This document shows, piece by piece, positions 3-62,356 of a stretch of 64,000 nucleotides of DNA. Each line of letters opens with the position of its first letter. The first letter of the stretch is position 1. Origin of the DNA: an uncultured virus (IMG/VR IMGVR_UViG_3300027804_000002) (lineage: Duplodnaviria > Heunggongvirae > Uroviricota > Caudoviricetes); IMG/VR virus record IMGVR_UViG_3300027804_000002; one strand, given 5' to 3'. The notes beneath the pieces are model-generated. The model saw only the letters and a program-made list of their open reading frames with translations, made no database searches and had not been told where the DNA came from. The translations under genes were made by a program, and so were the position numbers.

Positions 3-434
3 TTGCGTTTTGTTGTGTATGTGGTGCGTAAAATGACCGCATGGCATCATGGCAAAGTGCCTGTTGAGGACATATTGGCGATGGGTAACAAAGCCCTACT
101 GATCGCAGCCAAACGATGGCAACCCAAAAACAATGCTAGGTTTGCCACATACGCTAGGTCTTTTATTGAAAAAGGGGTGCGTAGGGACTTAGACAATACG
201 GCTAACCTCATTCGATTACCGATAAACATTATGGAACAAATAAAAAAACTTAACTACAACAAACGAAACTTGACCCAAATATTAGGGCGAGAACCTAAAA
301 TATCTGAGCTGGCGACAATTATGGGGGTGTCTGAGAATAAAATACACCAACTGCAAGGTCACATCAACAAAGAACCTATTTCTTTAAATAATCTTAAACA
401 AGAAAAATATGCAGAGGAAAGCACCGATGATTGA
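3..434 (+). CDS. Sigma-70 family RNA polymerase sigma factor (5' truncated by window edge)
   Basis: Region 2-3-like segment 'EDILAMGNKALLIAAKRW...RFATYARSFIEKGVRRDLDNTANLIRLP...LGREPKISELA' resembles RpoD/RpoS regions 2.1-3. The ORF ends soon after 'PISLN', so region 4 is absent. Confidence 0.85.
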   Translation: MRFVVYVVRKMTAWHHGKVPVEDILAMGNKALLIAAKRWQPKNNARFATYARSFIEKGVRRDLDNTANLIRLPINIMEQIKKLNYNKRNLTQILGREPKISELATIMGVSENKIHQLQGHINKEPISLNNLKQEKYAEESTDD

Positions 435-1443: not shown

Positions 1444-3765
1444 ATGAAAATTATGAACACTAAACCACAAACCCTACCCGTACAATTCACCAACATCCCC
1501 ATGGAGTTAAAACGCATCCCCCGTTGGGTGCTATGGAGATATGTAGAAATAGGTGACGAGACTACCAAACGCTGGTCTAAAATACCCACACAGGCAAATG
1601 GACAGTCCGCATCGTCAACCAACCCTGACACTTGGGCAGACTTCCTATCTGTCCAACATGCCTACGAAGACAACCCCAACCGATTTGATGGAGTGGGCTT
1701 TGTGTTCTCAGATCACGACAACCTAGTCGGTATCGATTTGGATGACTGCTACGACCACACACAGAGGGTTTTCACAGATGCTGCACTGCAGCAAATTGCA
1801 GATAAGGTCGATGGCTATATGGAAGTCTCCCCATCTGGCACAGGGGTCAAGATATTCACCAGAGCCGACATGCACTCAGCCCATGTAGACCACGACAAAG
1901 GATTGGAGTGCTACCCCCGTGGACGCTATTTTACGGTCACAGGACACGAGATCAGTGGCAAGGTGCCACCCACCCCTCAAGACCTAACCGATATCGTCCC
2001 TGAGCGCGAAATAAGGCGTACAGGGGACTCGTTTGCGGACTACACACCCCCTGTCGAAGGATATGACATCCACAAGGTCGAAACTGAGATCTTAGCCAAA
2101 CTAGACCCATCGTCAGGCTACACAGACTGGCTGTCTGTTGGATTTGCGCTACACCACCAATTCAACGGCGATATGGAAGCCTTGGAGTTGTGGGATAGAT
2201 GGTCGTATGGGGATGGCAGTGTGCCTAACTACACACCCAACGCATGTGACAAGAAGTGGACAACCTTTAAAGGATCAGGTGCAACCCTACGAAGCCTTAT
2301 ATTTAAAATCAACCAAATGGAGCGGGCAGAAGCCTTAGCATCGGGCGAGATCATTCTCGACCAAGGTGCTATGAACCATGCCCGTACCTTTCTCGAAAAT
2401 CAGTATGTCACAGAGGAAGGCTACCGCCTAGTCCATTATTCGGATGACTTTTATGTGCATGCAAGAACGCACTACGAGATCATGGAAGAGGCAACCATTC
2501 GGTCAGACTTATACAAACTGCTGGACAAATGCAAAAAGCCAGGGAAGAAAGGTGAGTTAGTGCCATTCAACCCATCGCCAGCATCGGTGTCAGCGTGCAT
2601 GGATGCGATCAAGTCCATCGTGCATTTACCCAACCACGCAAACACCCGACCACCGATTTGGTTAGATGCCTATCGTTTAAACAAACCCGAAGCATCCAAA
2701 CTTATCAGTTTGGAGAACGGACTGTTTCACCTCGAAGATCGTGTGTTGATCCCGCACTCATTGGGTTTCTTTACACAGAACTCGTTGCCGTTTGCGTATG
2801 ATCCATCGGCTAAGTGTCCGATATGGGATAACTTTTTAAAGTCTGTATGGACAACCGACCCGCAGTCGATAGAAGCCTTGCAAGAAATGTTTGGTTACAT
2901 CCTCAGTGGTGACACCCGCCAGCAGAAGTTTTTTAACATCATCGGCCCCCGCCGTTCAGGTAAGGGAACAATCAATAAAGTGTTGGTGTCCCTCTTAGGA
3001 CAACACAACACAGTGGCGCCCGAACTAGGAGAACTATGTGATACTTTCGGCTTGCAACCTTGGCTCGGCAAACTGCTGGCTTCTTTTACTGATGCACGCG
3101 CTCCTGAACGTAATCGTTCTGCTGTTGTTAGCCAGCTTCTGCGTATTGTCGGTGGTGATACTATTACGGTTAATAGAAAAAATAAGGAGTCGTGGAACGG
3201 ATACCTCCCCACCAGAATCGTAATCTATTCCAACGAGACCTTGCAATTAACCGAGAACTCAAACGCACTCACAGGGCGAATGATTGTATTGAAGATGACC
3301 AAATCCTTTTACAACCAAGAGGACACTGATCTATCCCACAAGTTATCAAGCGAACTGTCAGGCATTTTTAATTGGGCGATGGAAGGCTTGCAACGCAGAA
3401 TAGATCGTGGCGGTCACTTCATACAACCTGAGAACGGCAAGGATTTAATCGAAGTGATGGCTGAGGCTGGCAACCCAATCGGCGCATTTGCTGAGGAAGT
3501 GCTAACATTCGACCCATCATCGTCAGTGCCAAAGGATCATGTGTTTGCTTGTTTCAAACATTGGGCAACCAAGAAGAACCTGCCATTTGGTACAGAGATG
3601 TCGTTTAAACGCAGATTCTTAGCGGCGACTCAAGAGCATGCAGTCACAGTAACAAAGGCGATGGTAGGCGGTCAGCGCAAACATGTGTACGATGGTATCA
3701 AGTTAAGTGCCAAGGCACAGAAGTATGTTGACCAAAACGTAATTGAAGACGAAGGAGTGTTCTGA
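1444..3765 (+). CDS. Primase-polymerase / PriCT-2 / D5-like SF3 helicase
   Basis: N-terminal 'GIDLDDC...EVSPSGTG' primpol motifs; 'YTDWLSVGFALH...WDRWS' PriCT-2; Walker A 'GPRRSGKGT'. Confidence 0.9.
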   Translation: MKIMNTKPQTLPVQFTNIPMELKRIPRWVLWRYVEIGDETTKRWSKIPTQANGQSASSTNPDTWADFLSVQHAYEDNPNRFDGVGFVFSDHDNLVGIDLDDCYDHTQRVFTDAALQQIADKVDGYMEVSPSGTGVKIFTRADMHSAHVDHDKGLECYPRGRYFTVTGHEISGKVPPTPQDLTDIVPEREIRRTGDSFADYTPPVEGYDIHKVETEILAKLDPSSGYTDWLSVGFALHHQFNGDMEALELWDRWSYGDGSVPNYTPNACDKKWTTFKGSGATLRSLIFKINQMERAEALASGEIILDQGAMNHARTFLENQYVTEEGYRLVHYSDDFYVHARTHYEIMEEATIRSDLYKLLDKCKKPGKKGELVPFNPSPASVSACMDAIKSIVHLPNHANTRPPIWLDAYRLNKPEASKLISLENGLFHLEDRVLIPHSLGFFTQNSLPFAYDPSAKCPIWDNFLKSVWTTDPQSIEALQEMFGYILSGDTRQQKFFNIIGPRRSGKGTINKVLVSLLGQHNTVAPELGELCDTFGLQPWLGKLLASFTDARAPERNRSAVVSQLLRIVGGDTITVNRKNKESWNGYLPTRIVIYSNETLQLTENSNALTGRMIVLKMTKSFYNQEDTDLSHKLSSELSGIFNWAMEGLQRRIDRGGHFIQPENGKDLIEVMAEAGNPIGAFAEEVLTFDPSSSVPKDHVFACFKHWATKKNLPFGTEMSFKRRFLAATQEHAVTVTKAMVGGQRKHVYDGIKLSAKAQKYVDQNVIEDEGVF

Positions 3766-4130
3766 TGATCGCTGGAGTGGGTGTTGATATTGTCAAGGTA
3801 AACAGGTTTAAAAACCTACGAGTGCCGTTAAACATTTTGGGTTTGCATGAACAACAAGAATACGAGCGCAGAGGTAAACCAGCAGACTACCTAGCCACTC
3901 GATTCGCCGCTAAGGAAGCGTTTCTAAAAGCACTTGGGTCTGGCATAAGTCCGATTGCTAACATGGATCTTGTGCAGTTGTTAAATGACGACAACGGGCG
4001 CCCGTATTTTGCGCTCAATGGCTGGGTGTATGACTTTGTAAAGAAAAACAAATATTACCCGCATGTAAGCGTAAGTGACGAAGAGGATGTGGTGGCGGTG
4101 TTTGTAACCATTGAGAAACGCAGACGATGA
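3765..4130 (+). CDS. acpS: Holo-ACP synthase (AcpS-type 4'-phosphopantetheinyl transferase)
   Basis: 'GVGVDIV', 'LATRFAAKEAFLKALGSG', 'NGRP', 'VSVSDE' motifs; 121 aa. Confidence 0.92.
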   Translation: MIAGVGVDIVKVNRFKNLRVPLNILGLHEQQEYERRGKPADYLATRFAAKEAFLKALGSGISPIANMDLVQLLNDDNGRPYFALNGWVYDFVKKNKYYPHVSVSDEEDVVAVFVTIEKRRR

Positions 4131-4375
4131 AACCTTTTCGTTTTAAGAAAACCATTTTGCGCAACGGTTTTACCAGCATATTTGGTAAAGTAGGTAAACG
4201 GCGCATTGTGTTTATTAGCAAAAATGGGAAACCAAACCACTACAAACGCGCCCGTATGCAGATGTACCGAAGAGCCGCGCAAGGGTGGCGCAACCAAACG
4301 TATGCACGTCTATGTGCTTTAAAGATATACGTAAGATTTGGCAAACGTAAACCATCGAGGAGGTTTGGATTATGA
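4127..4375 (+). CDS. Hypothetical basic protein
   Basis: Overlaps the stop and start of both neighbours. Confidence 0.45.
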   Translation: MKPFRFKKTILRNGFTSIFGKVGKRRIVFISKNGKPNHYKRARMQMYRRAAQGWRNQTYARLCALKIYVRFGKRKPSRRFGL

Positions 4376-4704
4376 ACACACCGGACAGGTGGGTAGTGAT
4401 CGAAGTAATCGCCGGCGACACGCACCTCTACCGCGTGTTTGGTTGTTGGTATGGCGGGTATGCCGGATCAGACTCGTGGCAGATGAATAGTGGCATCGTG
4501 GGCGTAGATGAAGAGAAACAATACTACGACTTTCATGGCGCCTCGGGGTCTGTGTACCGGTGCTACAAACATAATTACGGCTCACACCTGTACGGCGCAT
4601 CAGTGCTCAATAACCTGATCGCCAAGGCAAAGGAGCAGGGCACCACGATCAACATCATGCCGGAAGAAACAAATTGGAAGGAGTTAGTATGTACCACACA
4701 GTGA
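4372..4704 (+). CDS. Conserved phage hypothetical protein
   Basis: 'PDRWVVIE...WYGGYAGSDSWQMNSGI...GASGSVYRC' is a recurring phage protein pattern. Confidence 0.65.
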   Translation: MNTPDRWVVIEVIAGDTHLYRVFGCWYGGYAGSDSWQMNSGIVGVDEEKQYYDFHGASGSVYRCYKHNYGSHLYGASVLNNLIAKAKEQGTTINIMPEETNWKELVCTTQ

Positions 4705-5662
4705 AAGAATATGAGGATGCAGTTAATCGCACACCAATGACCGACGAAGAGATCCGCGTAATGATTATCAACATGAATAAAACCAACCAAATGTGGAGCA
4801 TGCGCGACTTTGTGCGAACAGTTGAAGAATACCACGGGATAAAAAATGAAACCAACCGATGAGTATAAAGTCTGCTCGTTAGAAGAGGCAGAAGAATTTG
4901 CGAAGAGAAGAGAAATGAACAATGAACCAGTAGCGTGGATGTCAAACGGAAAAGAGTTTTATGTTCAGAAGAATTACTGCCCTGACTTTATTCCACTCTA
5001 CACCCATCCAGTAAAAGAATTAACAGATGAGGAAATAGAAGAAATTTATTACAAAGACTTTAACCATGATGGTGAAGATATGCTTGAGTTTGCTAGAGCA
5101 ATACTAAAGAAAGCGAGTGAGAAATGAAAGTTAAAATGATTGATCCACCCAAAGGGTGGTTGTACGGATTTCCTAAAGAGATACCCGAGCACGTCGACAA
5201 CACTGTGCAGTGGCTAATTGAGAACGGCTACCCTGAGAAGTTAGTTAAAGACTTTGGGGATGCTTTTTATGTACGTGGCTGGTATGAGGAAATAGAATGA
5301 ACTTACAAACAATCCATGAAAGAACCGCTAAATGGATTGGGGACACTTGGCAAGTATCCGATGTGCCTAGTTATTATTGGGAAAATGGGTCAATAAAATC
5401 ACCAGCATTTAACACATTGACTCTTGCGTTACAGTGGATAATTAAACATGATGAGGAAAAAATGAAACCAAACTATGTAGCAGAGGCACCGTACCAACCT
5501 GGCTATGAGGATGCCGTAGTCACGGAGCCAAAGCCATTTTTATGCGGAATCTACAAATCAAAACCCCTTACAAATCAAGAGATTATTGGAATTAGAATGC
5601 AAACGGAAGGTGACATAATTGCGTTTGCCCGAGCAATAGAAAAGGCACACGGAATAAAATGA
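4689..5662 (+). CDS. Cluster of four small hypothetical genes (4689-4862, 4846-5127, 5124-5300, 5297-5662)
   Basis: Tightly overlapping ORFs; three contain an '(L/M)TDEEI...F(A/V)RAIE'-type phage motif. Confidence 0.55.
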
Positions 5663-6258
5663 AAAACAAAAAAGCATTGCCGTTTTATATAGCAACCACT
5701 GGTTTTTATGAAGCCAAGGTAAAGGTATGTTTTTCGGATGATTCATTTCAGGCGGCGCTAAAACATTCTAAGATAACAACTAAACATTCAAGCCTAGATG
5801 TCGGTGTAGCAGAGTCGCATTACATCCAACAAGAGGGCACACAAAACGCTATGCTGGCGATTGTGTTTGATCTTAAAGCCATGGAGGACTACGACCCACT
5901 TGAACGTATTGGTGTCATAGTGCATGAGTGTGTGCACACTGTCACCCATGTGTTTGAGTATATTGGGGAAGACGAAGCCAAGATTGGTGATGAAACCCGA
6001 GCCTACTTTACAGAGTATTTGTTTAAACAAGTGTTTGCGGCATACGCAACGGAGCAAGAAAACTATGAGAATTTTAGAAAGCGACATCGAGCAGCATCTG
6101 AGCAAATCCGTGAAAAAATTGAACGGGCTCTCACTGAAATGGTTAAGCACGATATCGGGAGTGCCGGACAGAATAGTGTTCCTGAACCAGCAAGTGTTCC
6201 TAGTGGAACTGAAAACACCGACAGGAAAAATAAGCGAAAGACAAAAGATAGTCTTTGA
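5659..6258 (+). CDS. Hypothetical protein with HExxH motif (possible metallopeptidase)
   Basis: 'VIVHECVHTV...DETRAY'; the C-terminal ~65 codons overlap the VRR-NUC gene. Confidence 0.55.
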   Translation: MKNKKALPFYIATTGFYEAKVKVCFSDDSFQAALKHSKITTKHSSLDVGVAESHYIQQEGTQNAMLAIVFDLKAMEDYDPLERIGVIVHECVHTVTHVFEYIGEDEAKIGDETRAYFTEYLFKQVFAAYATEQENYENFRKRHRAASEQIREKIERALTEMVKHDIGSAGQNSVPEPASVPSGTENTDRKNKRKTKDSL

Positions 6259-6367
6259 CCAACTAGGCGAACAAGGCTTTCCTGTTCACATTTTAAGATC
6301 CAAGGATGACGTAGATGATTTTATTAAACAAGCAATGCCCAAAATGCAAACAGTTAAAAAGCTATAG
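6065..6367 (+). CDS. VRR-NUC domain nuclease
   Basis: 'ESDIEQHL...SGVPDRIV...LVELKTPTGKISERQ'; start at ATG 6065 inside ORF 5924..6367. Confidence 0.88.
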   Translation: MRILESDIEQHLSKSVKKLNGLSLKWLSTISGVPDRIVFLNQQVFLVELKTPTGKISERQKIVFDQLGEQGFPVHILRSKDDVDDFIKQAMPKMQTVKKL

Positions 6368-7205
6368 CGAATTTAATAAAGACAAATACAGACAAGATGA
6401 ATTAAAAACGTATTGTAAACTTTGTGATCGGGAATACTCAGCAAGCTGGTCTAAAAATAATAGAGACAAAGCAAATGCTAAACGTAGTCGGTATCGTGTT
6501 GCAAAATTAAACCGCATGTTAAAATGGGGCAAGTTGCATTTAAAACCGGAAATAGAAGTATGGTATCGCCGAGCACAACTAGCCACAATTTTTATGGAGG
6601 AATTATATGAAGTTGAACATATTGAACCGTTGCAAGGAAAAGATGTATGCGGATTACACGTTCCATGGAATCTAACCTTGCTTACTAAAAAAGAAAACGC
6701 ATCAAAAGGAAACCGACGTGCTAAAGAGAACACAACTACATCAGTATCAGCAGGAGATTATATCCCGGGCGCAGTCGGTGCCGAACTTGGGTCTGTTTCT
6801 ACCCCCTGGACTTGGAAAGACAGCGACGACGCTAACGATTATCGCGGAGCAACTCAAGGGGAAAACTCTTATCGTAGCGCCAAAGAGGGTAGCGGAAACA
6901 GTATGGGAACAGGAAACACAGAAATGGGAACACCTACAACACCTGAAGGTAGCCAAGATATTGGGCACCCCGAGTCAACGGTTAGCAGCGTTGAAGAGTT
7001 CTTCGAGCGTGTACGTAGTCAATCTCGAGAACTTGATATGGTTGTTGGATCAACCAAAGATGCAATTCAACAATCTGATAATCGACGAGTCGAGTCGCTT
7101 CAAAGATCCTTCGACGAAAAGATTCAAGAGCTTGAAGAAACACTTAAAGAGCTTCGAGCGACGTATTATTCTGACAGGGACCCCGACACCTCAAGGGATG
7201 GCTGA
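6315..7205 (+). CDS. HNH homing endonuclease
   Basis: CxxC...CxxC N-terminus and 'EVEHIEPLQGKDVCGLHVPWNLTLLTKKENASKGN'; 3' half overlaps the helicase gene. Confidence 0.8.
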   Translation: MILLNKQCPKCKQLKSYSEFNKDKYRQDELKTYCKLCDREYSASWSKNNRDKANAKRSRYRVAKLNRMLKWGKLHLKPEIEVWYRRAQLATIFMEELYEVEHIEPLQGKDVCGLHVPWNLTLLTKKENASKGNRRAKENTTTSVSAGDYIPGAVGAELGSVSTPWTWKDSDDANDYRGATQGENSYRSAKEGSGNSMGTGNTEMGTPTTPEGSQDIGHPESTVSSVEEFFERVRSQSRELDMVVGSTKDAIQQSDNRRVESLQRSFDEKIQELEETLKELRATYYSDRDPDTSRDG

Positions 7206-8061
7206 CTTGTGGTCACAGGTAGGTATTTTGGATTTGGGGCAAAGATTAGAAACGAGCTTAACGGCGTTCAGGTCAAAGTACCTGACACCGGGGCAGATGA
7301 ACAGGCATACACACGTTGTGTATAAGTGGGCGCTCCAGCCAGGGGCAGACAAAAGGATACAGGATAAGATTAGTGACATATGTTTTAGTCTGCGGGCTGA
7401 GGATTATTTGACACTACCCAAACTAACTAAGTTGTATCACAAAATAGACATAAACCCGGCGGAGCGTAAACAATATGACACACTTACAAAAGACATGGTC
7501 GCTAGTATCAATGGTGAACTCATCACGGCTCCAACAGCGGCAGCACTGGCGGGCAAACTCTTACAGTTCACATCAGGCGCGGTGTATGCAGAAGACGGAA
7601 GCTGGCAAAAAGTACACGATGTTAAATTGGAATACCTTGAGTCGATCATGGAAGAGTCCTCGTCCCCCACACTCGTGTTCTACCACTTCAAGCATGCGCT
7701 TGCGAGAATCCAAGAGAAGTTTCCCGAAGCAGTGGTGCTGGATGATGACAACATCCAAGCGTGGCGTGATGGCAAAATTCGTATGCTCCTTGCCCATCCC
7801 CAGTCCGGGGGTATTGGGCTCAATCTACAGTGCAACGTTGGAGAAACAGCACAGACTGTGTGGTTTGATTTACCATGGAGCTCAGAAAACTACATCCAAG
7901 CCAACGCACGGATTTACAGGCAAGGGCAGGAAAAACCGGTTATCATTCATCATTTGACAATTAGTAAAACAATTGATGAACAAGTGATACGAGTTTTAAA
8001 TGGTAAAATAAGTTTACAAGAAGCGTTATTAGAATCACTTAACATGAAAGAAACAGCATGA
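6718..8061 (+). CDS. SNF2-family helicase
   Basis: 'PGLGKT', 'IIDESS', 'LTGTP', 'GIGLNLQ', 'QANARIYRQGQ'. Confidence 0.92.
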   Translation: MLKRTQLHQYQQEIISRAQSVPNLGLFLPPGLGKTATTLTIIAEQLKGKTLIVAPKRVAETVWEQETQKWEHLQHLKVAKILGTPSQRLAALKSSSSVYVVNLENLIWLLDQPKMQFNNLIIDESSRFKDPSTKRFKSLKKHLKSFERRIILTGTPTPQGMADLWSQVGILDLGQRLETSLTAFRSKYLTPGQMNRHTHVVYKWALQPGADKRIQDKISDICFSLRAEDYLTLPKLTKLYHKIDINPAERKQYDTLTKDMVASINGELITAPTAAALAGKLLQFTSGAVYAEDGSWQKVHDVKLEYLESIMEESSSPTLVFYHFKHALARIQEKFPEAVVLDDDNIQAWRDGKIRMLLAHPQSGGIGLNLQCNVGETAQTVWFDLPWSSENYIQANARIYRQGQEKPVIIHHLTISKTIDEQVIRVLNGKISLQEALLESLNMKETA

Positions 8062-8357
8062 CAGACCAAGAACTGCTACTAATTATGAACGGCATCGTAA
8101 AGGTTGCAAGACCTGTGAGTGCCGATGAATTAAAGATAGAAAGCCTCGACACATTAATTAAAGACACTGGTCTTGATAGCCTGGACTTCTTGATGGTCGG
8201 TGTTTATTTGTCCGACATCTATGGTGTGTCTGAGGAAGACGTCAAACTAATGAAACTCACGGAAGAAAGCACAATCCGCGATGTATTTGAGTTTATGTTT
8301 AAACACTCCACACAAACACCAAAGACCGTAGAAGAGGCACTTGAAAACGTAAAATGA
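8058..8357 (+). CDS. Acyl carrier protein
   Basis: 99 aa and acidic; 'DTGLDSLDFLMVGVYLSDIYGV' phosphopantetheine site (Ser codon 8178-8180); 'TIRDV' helix IV motif. Confidence 0.85.
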   Translation: MTDQELLLIMNGIVKVARPVSADELKIESLDTLIKDTGLDSLDFLMVGVYLSDIYGVSEEDVKLMKLTEESTIRDVFEFMFKHSTQTPKTVEEALENVK

Positions 8358-9463
8358 TCTACTTAACAGACTACCGCACAGTGGCGGCAACCCATACTGA
8401 TTTATTCGATGAAATGTCTTATCCGCAAAGAGCATTCTGGTTTCCAGAATTGTTTGCCAAAAAAGATAGCGGATTAGTTTACGTGCCGCACAAGCTGGCT
8501 GACCGTGTGTTAGATGTGGAACTACTTAGATCACTTAGAGAGCGCAAAGGCAAGACTGCTTTTATCTTGGCATCTGGTAACGCACACTTTGCCGGTATCA
8601 ACCCATACGCTATTAAGAAAAGCCGTTTGACCTATGACTACAAACTACTACCACTCACACTGACGCAGGTGTACGCTGGTCGTATCGGGCAGATGTGCGG
8701 GGCGGACGATTTGATCACAACCGATGCCAGCGCTTGTGCATCCAGCCTCAAAGTTATGTCGGACGTGTGCCAACTGATGACATACCAAGGGTTTGATCGG
8801 GTGTGCGTGTTGGGCGTAGAGGACACTATCAACGACAAGGTATTGCATTTCTTTGGCGAATCGGGCGCGTGTTTGACATACGATAAAGAACAGCAAGGAA
8901 TTAAACCATCTGCGTTTGACCACCATAACGGCGGGTTTTACATCGGTCAGGGCGCAGTGTTTGCCGTCTTTGAGAATGAGAATGTATTAGTTAATAAACC
9001 AAAAGCAAAACTAATAAGCGCTGGTGTGGCTAGTGAACAAAGCACCAACGCAATCGGGCAACGTGAAGATGGGCAAGGTTTTGTAAAAGCCGCCGCCCTA
9101 GCATTACGATCAGGTAACATAAGCACAGAGGAGATACAAATTGTTAAAACGCATGGTACAGGGACTAAGTCAAATAACATGTCTGAGAAAGCGGCTTTAC
9201 AGGCGTTGTTTCATACGCCGTTTATTGCGACATCCTTTAAACAAATAATAGGACATACAATGGGCGCGTCAGGTTTGTTGGAGACCTGTTTGCTATTAGA
9301 TAGTTTGCAATCAGGTATAGTGCCAGCCATTCCAAACCGTACCCAAAAAGATGATGTTTATTTGTCTGAACCCATGATGATTAAACGCAAGCCAAAGATT
9401 TTAAGCCTAGCCGCAGGTATGGGGAACATTTACGCAGCCGCAATTTTTGACACACGAGTATGA
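8354..9463 (+). CDS. Beta-ketoacyl-ACP synthase (FabB/FabF-like ketosynthase)
   Basis: Cys-His-His triad intact: 'ASACASS', 'KTHGTGT', 'SFKQIIGHTMGASG'; 'PSAFD...GFYIGQGA'. Confidence 0.92.
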   Translation: MIYLTDYRTVAATHTDLFDEMSYPQRAFWFPELFAKKDSGLVYVPHKLADRVLDVELLRSLRERKGKTAFILASGNAHFAGINPYAIKKSRLTYDYKLLPLTLTQVYAGRIGQMCGADDLITTDASACASSLKVMSDVCQLMTYQGFDRVCVLGVEDTINDKVLHFFGESGACLTYDKEQQGIKPSAFDHHNGGFYIGQGAVFAVFENENVLVNKPKAKLISAGVASEQSTNAIGQREDGQGFVKAAALALRSGNISTEEIQIVKTHGTGTKSNNMSEKAALQALFHTPFIATSFKQIIGHTMGASGLLETCLLLDSLQSGIVPAIPNRTQKDDVYLSEPMMIKRKPKILSLAAGMGNIYAAAIFDTRV

Positions 9464-9765
9464 TAACAAAACATAAAATCCAAGCAGTTACTCCAAGACT
9501 ATCAGACGAAGACCCAGATCCATTAGAGCAAGATGACGTGGAGGGCACATCCACCCAACTTATTGAAGGCTGGCTACCCTGGGAACCAGATGACATCCAA
9601 GACATCCGTAATTTGATAGAAAACAACATGCCGTTTAAACAACGGGAGGTTTTGCTTGCTTTTTTAAATGGACAGAGTTATAATGAAATACATGTAACCG
9701 AAAAACATTGGCGTTACCATTTCTCAAAAGGTGTAGAGTTTATCAAAAAGGAATTAGGACTATGA
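9460..9765 (+). CDS. Hypothetical protein, possibly a sigma region-4-like HTH
   Basis: 'NMPFKQREVLLAFLNGQSYNEI' resembles 'LPxxQREV...GxSYxEIA'. Confidence 0.5.
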   Translation: MITKHKIQAVTPRLSDEDPDPLEQDDVEGTSTQLIEGWLPWEPDDIQDIRNLIENNMPFKQREVLLAFLNGQSYNEIHVTEKHWRYHFSKGVEFIKKELGL

Positions 9766-9962
9766 GCCATTTTGTAATTGAATACTTATACGACGGGTGT
9801 TACATGATGGAAACACTTATGGGTGTTGAAGACGTTGATTTAAGCGAAAAACGTTTTGGGGAGTTGATGGGTGTTTGGGAATGCTCAACAATGGAAGAAG
9901 TTAAAATTTTGCATGAACATTTAAGGGAGATGAGACGTGAACGATCCAGTAAACAAGCCTAA
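9762..9962 (+). CDS. Hypothetical protein
   Basis: ATG 9762 overlaps the upstream stop. Confidence 0.5.
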   Translation: MSHFVIEYLYDGCYMMETLMGVEDVDLSEKRFGELMGVWECSTMEEVKILHEHLREMRRERSSKQA

Positions 9963-23108: not shown

Positions 23109-24173
23109 TTATGGTTCGTAATTCTCTATGTTATTATAACCTTCATATGGGTTTGATGGTTCGTAAGTATTCCAATCAAAATCAGATCCGCCGCCACCGC
23201 CGCCACCCATATCAAAATCTTCTCCGGTATCGCCGGTACCGCCACCAACATCCCTGTTATCTAAATCTGGATTTGGGTTTGGTATGTATGTTCCACCGCC
23301 ACCACCACCTCCAGGTACATATACATCACCACTTCCGCCTCCGGTGCCACCAATGTTAATTCCAGCACGTTTAAAGAAATCCATTAAGCCACCAGCAGGT
23401 TTGTAGCCGGGTTCTCCAGGTTTTCCTACCGCAGGGAATAGCTCTTTGAGTAACTTATCAGTACCACTAATAGAACCACCAAGAGCAGAAACAATAGAAC
23501 CAATTTGGTTAAGAGGTGATAGGTTGGTAACGTTTTTGGTTGTAGTTGGGATCTGCATACCGCCAAGGATTTTACCTAGAGCAGATGAGGCAAAGAACGG
23601 ATCAGACTGTTGGGCCTGTCCTAATGACGTCATAGACTGAACGCCTTGACTTCCTACTTGACCTAGTGCGCCGGCGGCTTGTGCGCCAACGCCTTGAGCT
23701 TGTAAGGCTGCGTTCATTTGGTCGGCAAACAACTTAGACTGTGCGTCGGCCATGGCTTTATTAACTGCAGTCTGCCCACGCAAACTACCAAAATTACCAG
23801 AAGCAATATTACCCCCTTCAACGGGAGCAGTATATTGAGGCATTAATTGTTCTAATGCTTGGTTTTGAGCTTGGAATAAACCACCCATTGGAGTGGCTAC
23901 ATTGGGAGTAACTTGACCTGTGTCACTAACAAGCCAAGGATTAGCAGCACCAGAAGCAATTTGGTTTAGGGTTCCTTGAGCTTGAGTAAAAGGATTTTGT
24001 GAACCGCTAAGTTGATTAATAGCTTGACCAGCAACAGTGTTTTGTAAACTAGGAACATTACCAGCCGCAGTGGTTGCTTGGTTTACAACATTCTGTTGCG
24101 CGGTATCAAACCACGATGGCATTGAGGTGGATTGAACCGCCTCGTTTGATATAAAATTAGATAAGCCAGCCAT
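23109..24173 (-). CDS. Putative ejection/pilot protein
   Basis: Gln/Ala/Gly-rich, located among internal virion genes. Confidence 0.55.
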   Translation of the reverse strand: MAGLSNFISNEAVQSTSMPSWFDTAQQNVVNQATTAAGNVPSLQNTVAGQAINQLSGSQNPFTQAQGTLNQIASGAANPWLVSDTGQVTPNVATPMGGLFQAQNQALEQLMPQYTAPVEGGNIASGNFGSLRGQTAVNKAMADAQSKLFADQMNAALQAQGVGAQAAGALGQVGSQGVQSMTSLGQAQQSDPFFASSALGKILGGMQIPTTTKNVTNLSPLNQIGSIVSALGGSISGTDKLLKELFPAVGKPGEPGYKPAGGLMDFFKRAGINIGGTGGGSGDVYVPGGGGGGGTYIPNPNPDLDNRDVGGGTGDTGEDFDMGGGGGGGSDFDWNTYEPSNPYEGYNNIENYEP

Positions 24174-26197
24174 TATTTTTTCACCTTCTTTTTCGCTTCC
24201 GTTAGGTATCCCAACGCGCCTTTACTATCTGGCGGTAATTTTCTTGAATCTGCTTTACGTTTATGTTCACGAATTGTTTTTAAAAATTCGCTTAATATTT
24301 CTGCACCACTATCATTACTGCCGTTACCTAATGATGATACAACATCTGCGGGAATTACAAACTCACCGTTTGCTAACATTGCTGGGATACTATCGCTAGT
24401 ACCATCACCCTTACCTTTTACGTAACTGTTCTTTAACGAGTTTAAACCACCTTCGCTAAAGAACTCAGGATTGTGTCCAATAGGACCACCTTCTTTTGCA
24501 GCTTTCCATTCTTTACCAAATGGGTAACCTGCCAATTCATAATTTAATGTTTTTGGTTTAACTATTCCTGGTTTTAACGCCATAATACTAGAACCGCTGC
24601 TTAAAAATGGTGAAGTGCCAGTGTAGCTTAAATCATAAACACCTTGTGTGTCAGTAGCAGGTCTGCCGCCGGTTGCCATTTCTTGAGGTTCTTGTTCTGG
24701 CGCCGAACCAATTAAACTATAATTTGGATCTCCAGTTAATACGTTAGATGTTAGTTGTGAACCGTATTGTGAGTTTAACATTAAACCAGGATCGGCCGCA
24801 GTTTGATTTGCGCCAGGTGTTGGTTTTTTAACCATGCCTTTGCGAATAGTTGCTGCTCTTGACAAACCAGGTCTACCAATTTTTACAGCAAAACCAGAAC
24901 CAGATTTTTCATCAGGAATTTCTGTGTATTCTTCTTCTTGATACTCACCGCTCATGTCAAAGTCTTCGCCGGTGCCTTTATCACTCATGTCAAAGTCTTC
25001 GCCGGTGCCTTCTAAACTACCTAAACCACCCGTACTAGTTGCTTCAGTAACATCAATAACTTCACCGTCTGGTGACATTGTAAGCGTGGATCCGTCATCA
25101 TAAGTATATATTAGATTACCGCGCGTGTCAGGTTTTTGGTTTTCCAATCCATCCGAAACAATTTCTTTTGGTTCTGGAATAGGCGCACTCATATCAAAAT
25201 CTTCACCGGTTGCGTCTATTGGTGATTCTTCTTGATATGGGTCAACATAATCTAATGTAGATCTTGATTCACCAGCAGTTGGCAACATGCGGTCATACTC
25301 TTCTTGAGTAATCTCACCATCAGCTAATTGCTGGTCTAATTCTTCTTTAGTTGGCGCAGGTAAAGATACACCTTCACCCTCAACATCCTCTGCGCCAGTT
25401 ACGGTAACAGATGCTTGTGGTTGATCGCTAGTTATTGTGCTTGCTGTTTTAGCGTAGGGCGATGGGCCAGATTGTTCTGCGTCCGCTTGCCCTTTAGCAA
25501 TTGCGTATGATTCTTCTGGTGAAAAACCGTTTTGAATAGCGTCTCTAAATGTTTGAGACATTGTTATTTCATCAGAAGGAATATTTGTTTCTGCGGTTTG
25601 TATTGTTTCAGTTGGTGGTGTGTAAGGCTCACTTCTGTCAATTACGGGGGCAGTTCTGTCATCCAGACCGGCATAATCTCTAACACCGCCAGCTATTTCA
25701 TTAGTACCGTATCTAATAGCTGCGTTGCCAATCATAGAACCCAGTGCTTGAGCAGGATCTCTTCCTTGAGCTGCAGCAACTGCGGTATTGGCAATTGCTT
25801 GGTCAGCAAAACTTGAACCAGTGCTAAGATCAACTGGTAAATTAGCTGTAATGCCCTGGGTTATCATGCTAGTGCCAATGTTTTGCGCCACTTGCATTGG
25901 GTCGGCGCCGTTTGCTAATGCCAAGCCAGTGTTTAATACCATAGCCGCTTGGGCGGTAGTTGCACCAGCCCAAAGATAAGGCGCTACATATGGTGCCGCA
26001 ATAGCAACAGCAATAAGCGGTAACGCTTTAGCTGGGTCGTTAGCAATTGCTTCTACTGTTCTACCAACAGATTGAGCTGTATCTTCAACAAAATTACCTA
26101 CTTCTTGGGCAGCGTCGCCAATGGCTTCACCAACCGCGCCAACTGCGTCACCAACCGCTTCAAATGTATCTGATACAACTTCAACGACGGCAGCCAT
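24173..26197 (-). CDS. Putative ejection protein
   Basis: N-terminal amphipathic and hydrophobic segment, acidic middle, C-terminal 'GDGTSDSIPAMLANGEFV' motif also typical of tape-measure C-termini. Confidence 0.6.
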   Translation of the reverse strand: MAAVVEVVSDTFEAVGDAVGAVGEAIGDAAQEVGNFVEDTAQSVGRTVEAIANDPAKALPLIAVAIAAPYVAPYLWAGATTAQAAMVLNTGLALANGADPMQVAQNIGTSMITQGITANLPVDLSTGSSFADQAIANTAVAAAQGRDPAQALGSMIGNAAIRYGTNEIAGGVRDYAGLDDRTAPVIDRSEPYTPPTETIQTAETNIPSDEITMSQTFRDAIQNGFSPEESYAIAKGQADAEQSGPSPYAKTASTITSDQPQASVTVTGAEDVEGEGVSLPAPTKEELDQQLADGEITQEEYDRMLPTAGESRSTLDYVDPYQEESPIDATGEDFDMSAPIPEPKEIVSDGLENQKPDTRGNLIYTYDDGSTLTMSPDGEVIDVTEATSTGGLGSLEGTGEDFDMSDKGTGEDFDMSGEYQEEEYTEIPDEKSGSGFAVKIGRPGLSRAATIRKGMVKKPTPGANQTAADPGLMLNSQYGSQLTSNVLTGDPNYSLIGSAPEQEPQEMATGGRPATDTQGVYDLSYTGTSPFLSSGSSIMALKPGIVKPKTLNYELAGYPFGKEWKAAKEGGPIGHNPEFFSEGGLNSLKNSYVKGKGDGTSDSIPAMLANGEFVIPADVVSSLGNGSNDSGAEILSEFLKTIREHKRKADSRKLPPDSKGALGYLTEAKKKVKK

Positions 26198-26664
26198 TAC
26201 GCACCCATCCTTTCACCTTGCAATACAAGAGTTACTCGAATTTGTTTGCCGTCAGTTGACTTTTGTACGGTGTATCCCATATTGGGGTTTCCCAGTTCTT
26301 GTTCTTCTCGGGCGATATATTTAAAAATATTTAAAAGGGAAGGGTCGGAGAAAGTAGTCTGCAGTCCAGTAAAACCATCTTCAATTGCTTTGTCTACAAA
26401 CATTTTGCTGTTTTGTATAAAGTTTTCAGCGGTGTCTGCATTAAGGGCACGGAACACACCGAACTCTTCACGTTGTTCGGAAGGGTGGATTACAAAAACA
26501 GTATTGCCAAACTTATACAATCTGGCGTTAGGCAATCCTAATTCTGCCGTAAAAAACAAAAAAACTTGTTTAAATGGATACGGCGAACGAGTGTTTTCAG
26601 CCGCGATCTTTACGATCATGTCTGTGCCTAGTTCTTCTTGTTTGCTGTCGACCATTTGAGTCAT
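26197..26664 (-). CDS. Hypothetical protein heading the ejection-protein operon
   Basis: 155-aa ORF directly downstream of a late promoter. Confidence 0.6.
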   Translation of the reverse strand: MTQMVDSKQEELGTDMIVKIAAENTRSPYPFKQVFLFFTAELGLPNARLYKFGNTVFVIHPSEQREEFGVFRALNADTAENFIQNSKMFVDKAIEDGFTGLQTTFSDPSLLNIFKYIAREEQELGNPNMGYTVQKSTDGKQIRVTLVLQGERMGA

Positions 26665-26700
26665 AGCTGTTCCTGTTTAAAAGGTATGATTCTTACATAT

Positions 26701-26730
26701 ACTAATGCAAAAATATTGCATTTATCGCCC
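26701..26730 (-). promoter_or_regulatory. Late-type promoter GGGCG-N15-TTGCATTAGT
   Basis: Exact consensus match. Confidence 0.75.
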
Positions 26731-26734
26731 TAAA

Positions 26735-26986
26735 TCAAGTGGTTGGGCCGTTTAAAATAAAGCTAAGGGCTGAGGCCCAGTCTTGCCAAGTCTCAAATGC
26801 TTCCGGGTCTGGGACCGGATAGCTTTCAAATGTAGTTAGTTGGCTAATGTTTTTAGCTACTAGTTTCCAATTATCCTCGTTGTCATACATAATTGGCTCT
26901 TCGCCAAAGTAATGTAGGAAGTTGCCGTTCCAATCATCCCAAGACATATACTCTGGGTTGATTGGGAAGAATGTTTGGATACTCAC
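26735..26986 (-). CDS. Hypothetical Trp-rich protein
   Basis: Overlaps the stop of the tail hub gene. Confidence 0.6.
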   Translation of the reverse strand: MSIQTFFPINPEYMSWDDWNGNFLHYFGEEPIMYDNEDNWKLVAKNISQLTTFESYPVPDPEAFETWQDWASALSFILNGPTT

Positions 26987-29118
26987 GGACGCTCGTCGCC
27001 GTACTCTGCAGTAATAAGCAGGCGGCCCATTTCAAAGTTACCGTCCAATACGTTGGACTCAAACTTGAGGCGTACTTCGCGGTGCTCTACGCGCAGGTCA
27101 ATCTTACCGGTGTCTGGGTCAAAGTAAAATGGCCCCGAGGTCTCTGTATCTCCGCGGGCAAATTTACGGCCCAATATGGTCATAGCCATTGTGCCGGACT
27201 GTACAAAGTCTGGCTCAATACGTCTTAAGTGCATACGCCGGTTAACGCCAGTGGCGCTGTCTTGTGATGGTATCCCACCAACCCAGCTAATGTCGCAAGT
27301 CGTGATGCTAGATGTAATGGCAAACTCTTGGTTAAACGTAATAGCGTTTGTGCCAAACTCATGCTGCCATAGTGGATATCCACCTTCAATATAATATATG
27401 TAATCGCCGGCTACTTGAATTGGGTCAAAGTTTACATCTACAGTAATTAATGTCACACCCTCTGGGTTTGTTGCTGTAATTGCAGAGGTAAACATAAAAA
27501 CACTTGTTACAATTTTATAAACAACAGGGCTTCCCGTATTTGTCAGCGAGATATAGTCACCCGCGCCAAAAGTAGCCGTCACGTCACCATTAATATATAC
27601 CTGGTTATTATTCGGTGGCGATTCACTGGGTGGCTCGTCAATAACTTCAAACGGTACGCTAAATGTATTAATGTCTTCCCATCCAGCCCAGATTGGTGTT
27701 GGGAACACCTCGGTGGTATATCCACACGATCTACGTGATCCAGGCGCGCTTCCGGCGTCGTACCAGATTTTGTCTTTGACGTTGTATACAATTGCGTCGG
27801 TGCATTCTGTGGCATCGCCGCGGGGATAAAAAAACCAGATCTCATTATACCTAGGTACTTTGGTTGCCCATACCTTTTGGCGCTGTACAAAGTTGAGGTT
27901 ATCAAATAGCCAGTTTACGTTTTTATCATTTGGCAGTACAGAGACCGCACCATTGTATAGGTAGAAACGGTCGACACCCATCCAGTAAAATATACCATCC
28001 ATCTCAACAAAGCACGAGGATGATATGGTAGAGATCTGGCTAGAAATAATATCATAGCGCCAGTAAAGCGGAGTTGTGCCGGTAAACGAAACACGGATCA
28101 AACTATCAGTTGCCCAGAACAATCCAGACGGTGAGTTAGTACCGCCGCGTACTGGTATGCCTTTAACAATCTTAGACGAGGCCATGTTGACCTGGTTAGA
28201 CGTTGGGCCGTTCCAGTCGGTAATTGTTTGCTGGTTGTATAATGTTAGCGTTGTATTGGTGTCGACGTTGTTGTTGGCAATAAAGCCATCCGACCCATAC
28301 ACAAACGTGTAGGGATACAACACGCAAACACCACCATCTACTACTATTGGTCGATAGGTTGGATTCTGACCGCCAGTATCGGCTAATCCGTAAAAGTTCC
28401 ATTCGTTTGATGAGTCTGGCAATAACCCACCAGTTAATACTTGGGTCTGGATGGCGTTGTCAATGTTTGCTAAGTTTTGACCCGGATGCGCCAACACTTG
28501 TAACGATCCACCCGCAGGCGAATACTGTAAGTCAAACTGCCACAACAGATTTGGATCTGGTGTAAATGTAACATCGTACAACGCTACCGTTGTGGGCGTT
28601 CCAGCAATACTGGAGGCCGTTACAGTTACCGTTGTATTTGGTGACGAATATACCGCACTAACTACTGTAGTTGCGGTAGTAATGTCGTCGTCAAATATAA
28701 CCGTCATTGCGGCAGGAAACGCCGCGGTTACGTCGCCAGCAATTACAAAGGTGCTGGTTGTGTTTGATACCAATGTAAAAGGTGCATAGCCAGGTAAAAT
28801 ATTTACAGTAAGCGGACCACTGCCAACGCCAAACGTAGTGCCTGTTGTAAATGCTTCTAAGCCATACTGGTTACCAACAAAAATGTAGTTAACTCCGTTA
28901 AAAGAGTTAGATATCATACCTCTTGGTATGCCGGTAAACGTCGCAAACAGTTCACGGTAGCCACCCATTTTTCTAGGCGTGCCACGTTGAAAACGGCACC
29001 ATTCTCCGTCACTGAACTCACGTGACTCAAATATTGTGCCGTCTCGTTTTATACCTGGCTGAACACCAAGCGTGTAGACCAGATTATACTGTTCTGGTAA
29101 GCTGTTTTCTCCGGCCAT
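26983..29118 (-). CDS. Tail hub / head-closure (P22 gp10-like) protein
   Basis: 711 aa, beta-rich; 'FYWMGVDRFYLYNG', 'YNEIWFFYP', 'LRRIEPDF'; position in the tail module. Confidence 0.65.
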   Translation of the reverse strand: MAGENSLPEQYNLVYTLGVQPGIKRDGTIFESREFSDGEWCRFQRGTPRKMGGYRELFATFTGIPRGMISNSFNGVNYIFVGNQYGLEAFTTGTTFGVGSGPLTVNILPGYAPFTLVSNTTSTFVIAGDVTAAFPAAMTVIFDDDITTATTVVSAVYSSPNTTVTVTASSIAGTPTTVALYDVTFTPDPNLLWQFDLQYSPAGGSLQVLAHPGQNLANIDNAIQTQVLTGGLLPDSSNEWNFYGLADTGGQNPTYRPIVVDGGVCVLYPYTFVYGSDGFIANNNVDTNTTLTLYNQQTITDWNGPTSNQVNMASSKIVKGIPVRGGTNSPSGLFWATDSLIRVSFTGTTPLYWRYDIISSQISTISSSCFVEMDGIFYWMGVDRFYLYNGAVSVLPNDKNVNWLFDNLNFVQRQKVWATKVPRYNEIWFFYPRGDATECTDAIVYNVKDKIWYDAGSAPGSRRSCGYTTEVFPTPIWAGWEDINTFSVPFEVIDEPPSESPPNNNQVYINGDVTATFGAGDYISLTNTGSPVVYKIVTSVFMFTSAITATNPEGVTLITVDVNFDPIQVAGDYIYYIEGGYPLWQHEFGTNAITFNQEFAITSSITTCDISWVGGIPSQDSATGVNRRMHLRRIEPDFVQSGTMAMTILGRKFARGDTETSGPFYFDPDTGKIDLRVEHREVRLKFESNVLDGNFEMGRLLITAEYGDERP

Positions 29119-30383: not shown

Positions 30384-31004
30384 TTATGGTTCCTGGACCG
30401 TAGTATTTCGATCAATACGACGCGAGTTGTCTTCCTTCTTCAACGCGGCTAATGACTCGGTGTAGTAGCTTTTCCATACGGGCAGCTTATCCAACGCCTT
30501 TAGATAGCCCTGGGCCTGTAGTAAAGTTCCAAACAACATCGCCTGCGGGCACTCGCGCGTGAACAAGTTGGTCTGGTTAGATGTATCTAATGGCTGGATT
30601 AGGCTGTAGTAAATAATTTCTACTGGGTAGTCATCGTCTGGCTTTGGCGCAAAGTTCCAGTTGTTGTAGTCATACTCGCCGTAGTACTTTGGCTGCCCGT
30701 TGCTAGACTCTGATTGGTACTGCGCAATATAATCCTGTGAGCGCAACAATACTGGCGCGCCGTTGACCTTCATAGACACAGTTTTACGCCAGCGTGCTGG
30801 TTTAGCTAGCACGTCCTGGTTAGTTGCCAGTGTGGTTTCTACGACAGTTAATTGCAGTAGCGACTTTAACTCTGCCGCAATCGCTGCCTCAGCCAATCCA
30901 ATTAGGCTGGGGATCTGTGCAACAAACCCGGCGTCGTCACGTTCCATGTAACGCTGGACGTCATCTACCAGATTGTTGTAGGTCATTACGTATGCGCCGC
31001 TCAT
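30384..31004 (-). CDS. Tail adaptor / tubular protein
   Basis: 'IPSLIGLAEA', 'GQPKYY', 'FAPKPD' adaptor pattern. Confidence 0.65.
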   Translation of the reverse strand: MSGAYVMTYNNLVDDVQRYMERDDAGFVAQIPSLIGLAEAAIAAELKSLLQLTVVETTLATNQDVLAKPARWRKTVSMKVNGAPVLLRSQDYIAQYQSESSNGQPKYYGEYDYNNWNFAPKPDDDYPVEIIYYSLIQPLDTSNQTNLFTRECPQAMLFGTLLQAQGYLKALDKLPVWKSYYTESLAALKKEDNSRRIDRNTTVQEP

Positions 31005-41779: not shown

Positions 41780-42823
41780 CTATTCCTTATAATACTCAAG
41801 ATTTTTTAGTAATCTTTCGTCATTGGGTTCAAATTGTAATGCGTTGGTGCCGTGCCTAATTGCTTCTTCTTTAAATCCTAACCTATAGGCTGCGATTGCC
41901 GCCAAATCGTGCGGCCTTGCCTTCCAGTTGTTTGCATCAATGGTGTACGTGTAGGTACACTCTGTCAGCCTGAGTGCGTTACATGCCGCGCCGTAACACT
42001 CCTCCCATAATCCTTTTCTGTAGCACGCCTGTGCTAACTCACACCACGTCTCACGCACGCCCGGGTCTTCGGATACTGCACGACGGTACCAACCGATGCC
42101 GTCGTGTCCAAGGTTGTCGTAGCAGTTACCGATTAACCTAAATGCGTAGGCTCGTTCGTTGTTCCATGTCGCCTCTGGCATCGCCAAATACTTTTGCAGT
42201 GCCACAATCGCCTCTTGCCAACGCTGGTAGTATGTTAACTCCCTAGCGTAATAAAACGCATTGCGTGGGCAGCTTGGGTCTTCCTTGACCGACATCTCCA
42301 ACAGATCTAAGTACTGACCCCGTGACTTTGTCTCGTCGGGGTGGTGCGTAATCATCAACATCTCACTATACGCAAACACTTCCTTGGTCCGATGGTCTGG
42401 CCTAATGTACTCGTGGCACGGGTGGTGCCAGTGGTAACCCTTGCGGGTGTGTACCTTCGTACTGTAAAACACTTTACCGTGCCCCCAGTCAAACTTATAA
42501 CTGAGTCTGGTGGTCTCTGGTTTCCAGAGACACTCTAATTCTTCACGCCAGCCTGGCTCTAACTGCTCGTCTAAGTCTAGCGATATGCAGACATCGATGT
42601 CTGCGGGAAGTAGCGCCAAAGCGGCATTCCGAGCATGATCGAAGCGCCAAGGAGAAATGCAAATGCTATGAACAACAGCCCCATACTTTTTAGCCTCCTC
42701 GACCGTACCATCCGTAGAACCAGTGTCGGCGATCATAATATAATCCGCTAACTTACTGGACTCGCAGAATGTCTTTACAAACTGCTCTTCATTTTTGCTA
42801 ATCGCATATACGGCGATTTTCAT
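41780..42823 (-). CDS. GT2 glycosyltransferase with C-terminal TPRs
   Basis: 'ISKNEE', 'DTGSTDGT', 'FDHARNAAL', 'LDLDE', 'HPCHE'; TPR-like helices. Confidence 0.88.
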   Translation of the reverse strand: MKIAVYAISKNEEQFVKTFCESSKLADYIMIADTGSTDGTVEEAKKYGAVVHSICISPWRFDHARNAALALLPADIDVCISLDLDEQLEPGWREELECLWKPETTRLSYKFDWGHGKVFYSTKVHTRKGYHWHHPCHEYIRPDHRTKEVFAYSEMLMITHHPDETKSRGQYLDLLEMSVKEDPSCPRNAFYYARELTYYQRWQEAIVALQKYLAMPEATWNNERAYAFRLIGNCYDNLGHDGIGWYRRAVSEDPGVRETWCELAQACYRKGLWEECYGAACNALRLTECTYTYTIDANNWKARPHDLAAIAAYRLGFKEEAIRHGTNALQFEPNDERLLKNLEYYKE

Positions 42824-62355: not shown

Positions 62356-62356
62356 C

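Follow-up and report, generated by a model that had tools for sequence, protein, structure and literature searches.

A putative acyl carrier protein and ketosynthase pair as a movable accessory cassette of SU10/phiEco32-like podophages

The stretch of DNA analysed here, a window of 64,000 nucleotides from the uncultured virus record IMGVR_UViG_3300027804_000002 of IMG/VR (Caudoviricetes), carries a predicted acyl carrier protein (ACP) gene that runs directly into a gene for a compact beta-ketoacyl synthase (ketosynthase, KS), with a gene for an AcpS-type 4′-phosphopantetheinyl transferase (PPTase) further upstream. Comparison of gene order over the relatives shows the conserved unit, as far as sequence can tell, to be a translationally coupled ACP and KS pair instead of the trio of PPTase, ACP and KS that an earlier note on this DNA had proposed. 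The pair also shows, by the same comparison, the features expected of a movable accessory cassette in a large, mostly freshwater clade of SU10/phiEco32-like podophages. For its function we tentatively favour, at a little under an even chance and by analogy, a NodFE-like orthogonal carrier and condensing pair that would leave the remaining steps to the type II fatty-acid synthase (FAS) of the host. All three open reading frames (ORFs) of the note were found where it had placed them, and they read as follows.

8058-8357, + strand: ACP of 99 aa, first part of the cassette core, with the pantetheine site Asp40-Ser41 in GLDSLD.
8354-9463, + strand: KS of 369 aa, a compact FabF-like elongating beta-ketoacyl synthase (PF00109, PF02801), second part of the core.
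3765-4130, + strand: AcpS-type (group I) 4′-phosphopantetheinyl transferase of 121 aa (Pfam ACPS, TIGR00556), not in the core pair.

ORFs were called in every fetched locus, whereby 144 sources with a KS gave 114 distinct KS sequences. An ACP homologue is present directly upstream of the KS in 110 of the 111 distinct KS genes that have at least 300 nt of upstream sequence, and across the relatives the ACP-KS junction is mostly a 4-nt overlap. The sole exception, L146, has a gene for a DUF2269 membrane protein between the two. It may be noted that L146 is also the most divergent viral member, and that its ACP, DUF2269 integral-membrane protein and KS (913-2704) adjoin a SU10-type portal gene. 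In the window the stop/start overlaps are as earlier described (primase into acpS; helicase into ACP into KS). The TGA of the primase and the ATG of acpS overlap by 1 nt at 3765, and a shared ATGA is present at the acpS/next gene, helicase/ACP, ACP/KS and KS/next gene junctions. The trio as a unit has to be given up, since AcpS is absent from most relatives and the ACP and KS pair is what recurs. A fourth conserved gene, which the note had proposed to look for, was sought by clustering the neighbours in 85 sources and was rejected: no further family is shared by the two genomic contexts (types A and B, below), only ACP and KS being common to both.

On dividing the loci by gene order, the type A context has the order helicase, ACP, KS and 101-aa gene, which is the arrangement of the window, and the type B context has the order tail gene, small ORF, ACP, KS and ejection or internal-protein genes. 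The 113 distinct full-length KS genes comprise 53 of type A, 56 of type B and 4 of neither. The 101-aa gene was found downstream of the KS in 47 of the 85 sources, all of them type A. Expressed in window homologues, type B reads 26983-29118, small ORF, ACP, KS, 26197-26664 and 24173-26197; this layout is also that of the GenBank phage MW202545. Every gene that flanks the pair in type B has a homologue in the window, at 29118-23109 (− strand), and the site where type B phages carry the pair stands empty at 26665-26734. The flanking features in the window are given below; by its sequence, the 101-aa gene product looks like a sigma region-4 or helix-turn-helix protein.

6718-8061, + strand: SNF2-family helicase (Pfam SNF2-rel_dom, phrog_62), upstream boundary of the type A cassette, outside the module.
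9460-9765, + strand: 101-aa gene with no Pfam match, downstream boundary of type A, outside the module.
26665-26734, − strand: empty type B insertion site, a 70-nt spacer between ORF 26735-26986 and the 155-aa gene 26197-26664, downstream of the tail gene 26983-29118 (− strand).

When the type A and type B labels are placed on the KS tree, only 5 changes are needed as against 43.7 for shuffled labels, and the main type A clade (45 rows, window included) is nested among type B lineages. This hints that the pair moved from the type B to the type A position, but does no more than hint, because the tree comes from FastTree only and its root was set with seven divergent representatives picked by hand. 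A clean empty type A site is found in a relative of 66,213 bp (G011) that CheckV rates 100% complete and that has a portal 76% identical to that of the window and homologous structural genes. There the homologue of 9460-9765 comes immediately after the helicase (65% identical). Four other portal relatives (1 with a KS, 3 without) are fragments of 48-74% completeness and hence uninformative in this respect. An isolated ACP and KS pair was also found at 9657-11128 of L088, a contig of a Rhodocyclaceae metagenome-assembled genome (MAG), with a guanine-plus-cytosine (GC) fraction of 0.61-0.63 within a contig of 0.60-0.71. It is flanked by aldehyde dehydrogenase, NAPRTase, PCMT, ECF sigma factor, holB and yceG genes, and L088 has no other ORF in common with the phage loci. 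The L088 pair may have been domesticated by the bacterium, may be what is left of a prophage, or may result from a chimeric assembly; going by its housekeeping neighbours, we count it as a pair that may work without a virion context. A third context was seen in L069 (1998-7115), where genes for a C-5 DNA methylase, an Asn_synthase/QueC-like protein and an S-adenosylmethionine (SAM) methyltransferase precede the pair.

The KS assignment is supported both by profile and by fold. PF00109 and PF02801 match with 39.1 and 58.5 bits (cut-off 20.8), the match of the N-domain spanning only profile positions 113-248. Cys128, His267, Lys296 and His301 are invariant in alignments A1 and A2, of which A2 is the alignment of deeply divergent representatives led by P0143, over relatives that are 27-100% identical. 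The four residues align to the catalytic residues of FabF 8z5c, so that the full Cys-His-His triad (C128, H267 and H301, with Lys296) claimed for this protein is borne out. AAGMGN aligns to sfGfGg of the same structure, whereby GMGN takes the gating-loop position of GFGG; M356 never varies in A1 and is conserved to at least 90% in A2. The signatures PSAFD, HGTGTxxNN and GMGN (AAGMGN in the window copy) are kept in the broad clade. The AlphaFold2 (AF2) model has a pLDDT of 86.2 and a pTM of 0.89, with only the loop at 81-101 of low confidence. On searching with Foldseek it matched FabF, KasA and the actinorhodin KS (TMq 0.76-0.81), the top match being 1tqy_A of actinorhodin (E 1.3e-22, TMq 0.80). 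The protein is about 40 aa shorter than FabF, with a shortened cap region at 81-101. Of the divergence earlier noted at both ends of the KS, that of the C-terminal loop stands, as SLAAGMG aligns to the GFGG loop, but the N-terminus shows no truncation and the compact fold is whole. A truncated or pseudogenised KS was rejected because of this whole-fold model and the invariant catalytic residues. Model and alignment together identify the protein as a complete thiolase-like KS fold and a predicted decarboxylating ketosynthase of the FabF-type Cys-His-His class.

We also predicted a complex of the KS dimer with the ACP. The score was 0.59 against 0.00 for the best of 3 controls, the runs agreed in at least 62% of contacts and the partner pLDDT was at least 79. 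On calibration the mark was reached by 116 of 157 solved complexes and by 2 of 215 mismatched pairs, and a score of 0.60 or lower was seen in only 18 of the 157 solved complexes as well as in both of the mismatches that passed. KS-ACP complexes have already been solved, and the pass may therefore stem from model memory; the predicted complex lends weak support to the pairing.

Asp40 and Ser41 of the ACP, the Asp-Ser pantetheine site, are invariant in 67 distinct ACP sequences, and the intact GLDSL serine earlier claimed was confirmed as Ser41 in GLDSLD. A profile of 20 family members matches solved ACPs (E 3.2e-4). In the AF2 model (pLDDT 89.9) the helix 41-55, which is helix II, starts at Ser41, and the top Foldseek rows are nearly all ACPs, although the matches are weak (best E 0.055, TM about 0.5-0.6). 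The ACP matches phrog_28189; the PHROG families of ACP and KS are both labelled 'unknown function'. Taken over the pair, the alignments indicate that the ACP residues and the KS catalytic residues have been under long purifying selection.

The KS family is large and mostly viral. In a metagenomic protein collection 1401 KS matches were obtained (E ≤1e-5, among 8000 candidates scored); the top 120 range from 351 to 375 aa in length, with identities of 61% or more. In IMG/VR at least 507-540 stretches encode a KS relative. Among 1.84 billion representatives searched, 47 KS representatives were found at E ≤1e-30. Their whole-length-aligned members are about 345-390 aa and 31-60% identical, and past the 47 there is a drop to multidomain polyketide synthase (PKS) and FabF-like proteins of 24-30% identity. 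The nearest ESM Atlas clusters are 86-99% viral. A search of IMG/VR with the deeply divergent A2 KS, P0143, returned the main clade only, at no more than 39% identity to P0143. The KS is kept through divergence down to about 27-35% identity, and its GC fraction tracks that of the locus over a range of 0.37-0.62. GenBank phages gave one relative, MW202545.1, with a KS 57.6% identical; the small ORF just upstream of that KS is an ACP homologue (33% identical, E 3e-19). In genomes taken as one per species over 185,579 species, only 7 KS matches were found, 6 of them in MAGs, and most sit on short or phage-like contigs. The record titles are Polaromonas, Nitrosomonadaceae, Rhodocyclaceae, Balneolaceae, Lishizhenia, Parvibaculum and an unclassified Pseudomonadota MAG. 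By these searches the KS belongs to a discrete, virus-dominated clade of proteins of about 370 aa, which we take as an old phage lineage on the strength of this divergence, the viral Atlas clusters and the tracking of locus GC.

In comparison with the pair, AcpS is patchy in its distribution. The window protein passes Pfam ACPS (54.2 bits, cut-off 25) and TIGR00556 (60.2 bits, cut-off 45.35) and misses the acpS equivalog model TIGR00516 (52.5 against 59.8 bits). Its residues 1-118 align over the full length to 1-125 of the solved AcpS 5cmo (E 7.6e-15), and the motifs GvDIV (GxDIV) and RFAAKEAFlKAlG (FAAKEAxxKA) are conserved. Yet PF01648 (ACPS) is absent from all 5 relatives rated 96-100% complete and from MW202545, and AcpS is present in only 2 of the 50 distinct KS loci that have at least 6 kb upstream. 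The co-occurrence of the trio in related phages, on which the earlier note had staked its proposal, therefore fails for AcpS, and the self-activation that it had described is specific to a lineage. L018 and L021 have no acpS between the primase and the homologue of the conserved gene that stands 3′ of acpS in the window, so that the two genes adjoin:

4127-4375, + strand: conserved 82-aa gene 3′ of acpS, with a homologue directly after the primase in L018 and L021.

As these two loci lack the interruption, AcpS is read as an insertion at the junction of primase and 82-aa gene. A tree of 61 rows (window, L015, L094 and 58 of the best 60 matches at 100-150 aa) places the phage AcpS in one clade (support 95/89) made of the window copy, seven metagenomic clusters (52-97% identity) and the L015 copy (39%). 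The clade neighbours a Burkholderiales-type group (Rhodocyclaceae MAG, Accumulibacter, Massilia, Pseudoduganella) with weak support of 80/56, and the best cellular identity to the window AcpS is 42%. These comparisons identify AcpS as an old, patchy, lineage-specific phage add-on, and the sequence identities indicate that AcpS and ACP evolve much faster than the KS. The AcpS of L015 (1692-2015) is 39% identical to that of the window; the primase and KS of the two phages are 81-84% identical. A tblastn search of GenBank phages with AcpS gave 8 unannotated Listeria, Staphylococcus and Enterococcus 'phage' records (33-38%), which were set aside as host-type AcpS.

The 93 ORFs of the window were scanned with Pfam (15 + 78). 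None belongs to the transacylase, SDR reductase or FabA/Z dehydratase families, and a second KS-like ORF (chain length factor) is also lacking among them. PF00698, PF13561 and PF07977 are each absent from all 5 near-complete relatives. The absence from the window of a malonyl transacylase, reductase, dehydratase or thioesterase, earlier noted from the sequence, is thus upheld over the 93 ORFs. In rhizobia, the specialised carrier NodF and ketosynthase NodE draw on the housekeeping type II FAS, and mycobacterial AcpM and KasA form a comparable pair. Like nodF and nodE, the phage genes place a small ACP beside a FabF/FabB-type KS with a Cys-His-His triad, bring no transacylase, reductase or dehydratase of their own, and would be activated by an AcpS-type PPTase. 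The adjacency of ACP and KS that marks such a pair is found in 110 of 111 cases, and we infer the host supply of the remaining steps. In the cycle that we propose, apo-ACP would first be modified on Ser41 to give holo-ACP, a step that the phage's own AcpS would carry out in the window phage and the AcpS of the host in most relatives. Malonyl would be loaded onto the phage ACP by the host FabD, and the phage KS would take an acyl primer on Cys128 and condense it with malonyl-ACP. Each cycle would be finished by the host FabG, FabZ and FabI, which would be needed because the phage encodes none of them. The outcome would be a phage-controlled acyl-ACP pool alongside the host ACP and KS. The differences from NodF/NodE are that the pair is viral and not on a symbiosis plasmid, that its KS is about 40 aa shorter with a GMGN loop, that the window holds no NodA-like acyltransferase by Pfam, and that no neighbour is conserved in both phage contexts.

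Several observations weigh against a NodFE-like pair. The ACP alone misses the cut-off of Pfam PP-binding PF00550 (16.9 against 20.8 bits), so that its assignment rests on the family profile, the AF2 model, the fold matches and the Asp40-Ser41 invariance; the profile check that the earlier note had advised thus came out in part, with ACPS and both KS Pfam domains passing and PP-binding below its cut-off. The KS misses the FabF equivalog TIGR03150 (101.1 against 493.75 bits) and reaches the cut-off of none of the 17 curated KS families listed. It also has GMGN for the GFGG gating loop and NN for the usual GD after HGTGT. From these equivalog failures and residue changes it follows that substrate and partner specificity may differ from those of FAS. 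None of the 93 ORFs matches an acyltransferase or thioesterase family by which the product could be released from the ACP. G011 does without a KS altogether, which makes the cassette dispensable, and it is not obvious what a tailed phage, having no lipid envelope, would gain from it. The same divergence of the KS bears on the case for ordinary auxiliary metabolic genes (AMGs), in which recently captured host fabF, acpP and acpS would boost bulk host fatty-acid synthesis. This would be in keeping with the listing of fabF, acpP and fabG as viral or prophage AMGs in two surveys (PMC8224337, PMC10653327), and JGI annotates the KS family as 3-oxoacyl-ACP synthase. But a KS at 101 bits against a fabF cut-off of 494 bits, 25-30% identical to cellular KS and in a viral clade of its own, shows no sign of the recent host capture that the earlier note had named as its counter-case. 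Neither does an AcpS that is at most 42% identical to cellular AcpS and falls in one phage clade, and the 7 matches over the 185,579 species, 6 in MAGs and mostly on phage-like contigs, point the same way. Because of this sequence divergence the boosting of host FAS by captured genes is poorly supported, and we consider it very unlikely.

A dedicated product, a reading near to that of the earlier note, would be a phage-specific acyl chain or short polyketide, serving for example the acylation of ejection or tail proteins or as a small metabolite, and not a feed of host lipid. We hold this to be unlikely, with the position of the pair cutting both ways: it is between tail and ejection or internal-protein genes in 56 of the 113 distinct KS genes, but in the replication arm in 53. 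Such a product would suit a KS that forms its own subfamily, in which the gating loop is altered and the cap region at 81-101 is shortened and modelled with low confidence; it would also suit the DUF2269 membrane protein that stands between ACP and KS beside the portal gene in L146. A dedicated product is less easily reconciled with the lack of an acyltransferase, thioesterase or chain-length-factor partner in the window, with the homologous structural genes of G011 that occur without the pair, and with the pair that is alone in the bacterial contig L088. A bolder version would make the pair a minimal biosynthetic system native to viruses, with an end product specific to the phage. That product might be a short polyketide or unreduced beta-keto chain, or else an acyl group that ends up on the host envelope or on tail or ejection proteins; we rate this version as slightly less likely still. 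Interference with the host is a further possibility, whereby KS and ACP would drain malonyl-ACP or malonyl-CoA, or act as decoys for the partners of the host ACP, thereby reprogramming or halting host fatty-acid synthesis or ACP-dependent signalling. In E. coli, fatty-acid synthesis is blocked when FabF is overproduced. The pair does come without the rest of the pathway, in an accessory, moron-like cassette with occupied and empty sites. Yet a cognate ACP is strictly co-inherited with the KS and its pantetheine serine never varies, which speaks for a productive carrier cycle and not for a decoy. The AcpS added in the window lineage speaks for the same, and we give interference a low probability. 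The NodFE-like pair thus remains the reading we prefer, at the tentative strength stated above.

In relation to the housekeeping proteins FabF (KAS II), AcpP and AcpS, the phage KS has the same fold and catalytic residues, with FabF structures among its best sequence and fold matches; the phage ACP has the DSL serine and the phage AcpS belongs to the group I family. The differences are that the phage KS is only about 17-21% identical in structural alignments and misses all equivalog cut-offs widely, that the phage ACP is below the Pfam cut-off, and that the KS clade is discrete and virus-dominated. A minimal type II PKS (actinorhodin, 1tqy) likewise has a stand-alone KS with its own ACP and PPTase, but the phage window has no chain length factor, cyclase or ketoreductase. 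Virome surveys report fatty-acid-synthesis-type genes on viral sequences as 'acpP/fabF/fabG' AMGs, these being host-like fabG-acpP-fabF operon pieces in predicted prophages or read-level KEGG calls (PMC8224337, PMC10653327). PMC13547368 was consulted beside them, and phage isolates with an ACP gene appear at the level of literature listings and abstracts. Against the survey AMGs, the present pair is divergent and virus-specific, and is found in lytic-type podophage genomes at defined insertion sites. No study of this ACP-KS pair or of the phage AcpS was found in the full text of open-access papers and bioRxiv; the survey supplements may list members as 'fabF'. The component families are textbook ones; what appears new is a virus-dominated KS subfamily coupled to its own ACP.

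The window holds a whole tailed-phage gene set of the SU10/phiEco32-like podophage type. The replication or early arm on the + strand has sigma factor, primase, VRR-NUC, SNF2 helicase, DUF2800 nuclease, Enc34-type single-stranded DNA-binding protein, class II ribonucleotide reductase and family A polymerase. The structural and lysis arm on the − strand has terminase, portal, capsid, SU10-type adaptor, tail fibres, lysozyme, holin and SLT-bearing internal proteins. Given this complete gene set and the synteny of the cassette in many viral contigs, we rejected an origin in a host fragment or at the edge of a prophage. Also the syntenic IMG/VR relatives and a gene GC that tracks the phage GC agree with the earlier placing of the genes in a phage operon. 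A megablast search of the region 3500-9800 gave no match in GenBank phages. Two metatranscriptome-type runs share 0.10 and 0.07 of the sampled words of 3700-9800, and short contigs cover parts of the stretch, one of them matching 3928-4123 within acpS without a difference and another matching pieces of the helicase. Being present in an RNA library does not amount to being transcribed. Most of ACP and KS lacks such cover, which is uninformative either way.

Some other features of the window may be mentioned. The sigma factor at 3-434 (+ strand; Sigma70_r3, phrog_351) and the SU10-type adaptor at 30384-31004 (− strand) place the phage near SU10/phiEco32-like podophages. Upstream of the primase, at about 1100-1440, overlapping ORF translations contain repeated LSDLSD/KSDKSD-like strings, which suggest short DNA repeats, possibly an origin or iterons. 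An HNH/zinc-finger-like ORF at 6315-7205 (+ strand) overlaps the helicase at 6718-8061 (+ strand) by about 490 nt in a different frame. Only its first ~160 aa are conserved in relatives, and the same long overlap is found in L013 and L021; the two genes may truly overlap, the start of the helicase may be mis-called, or the region may hold a frameshift site. Among the tail-fibre genes is a GT2 glycosyltransferase with tetratricopeptide (TPR) repeats at 41780-42823 (− strand; phrog_13126, E 8.6e-105), adjoined by a collagen-repeat fibre at 42837-44435. In the early arm an AAA_5 (MoxR-like) ATPase and a DUF2201 metallopeptidase/VWA protein are present at 60110-61192 and 62288-63559 (both + strand), and a SprT-like protein is present at 56858-57466. 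The head module has a weak Cpn10 (GroES-like) match of 24.6 bits at 49079-49519 (− strand).

Through the cassette one could study by experiment how lytic phages that infect freshwater, Betaproteobacteria-like hosts may intervene in acyl-ACP metabolism; genomes that have or lack it, and genomes that have or lack AcpS, provide natural controls. Its compact KS may also interest pathway engineering as part of an orthogonal KS/ACP pair. Were the pair indeed a virus-native biosynthetic system, the AcpS lineage would be its fully self-priming version, and a natural-product-type pathway would belong to tailed phages themselves in place of being borrowed from host metabolism.

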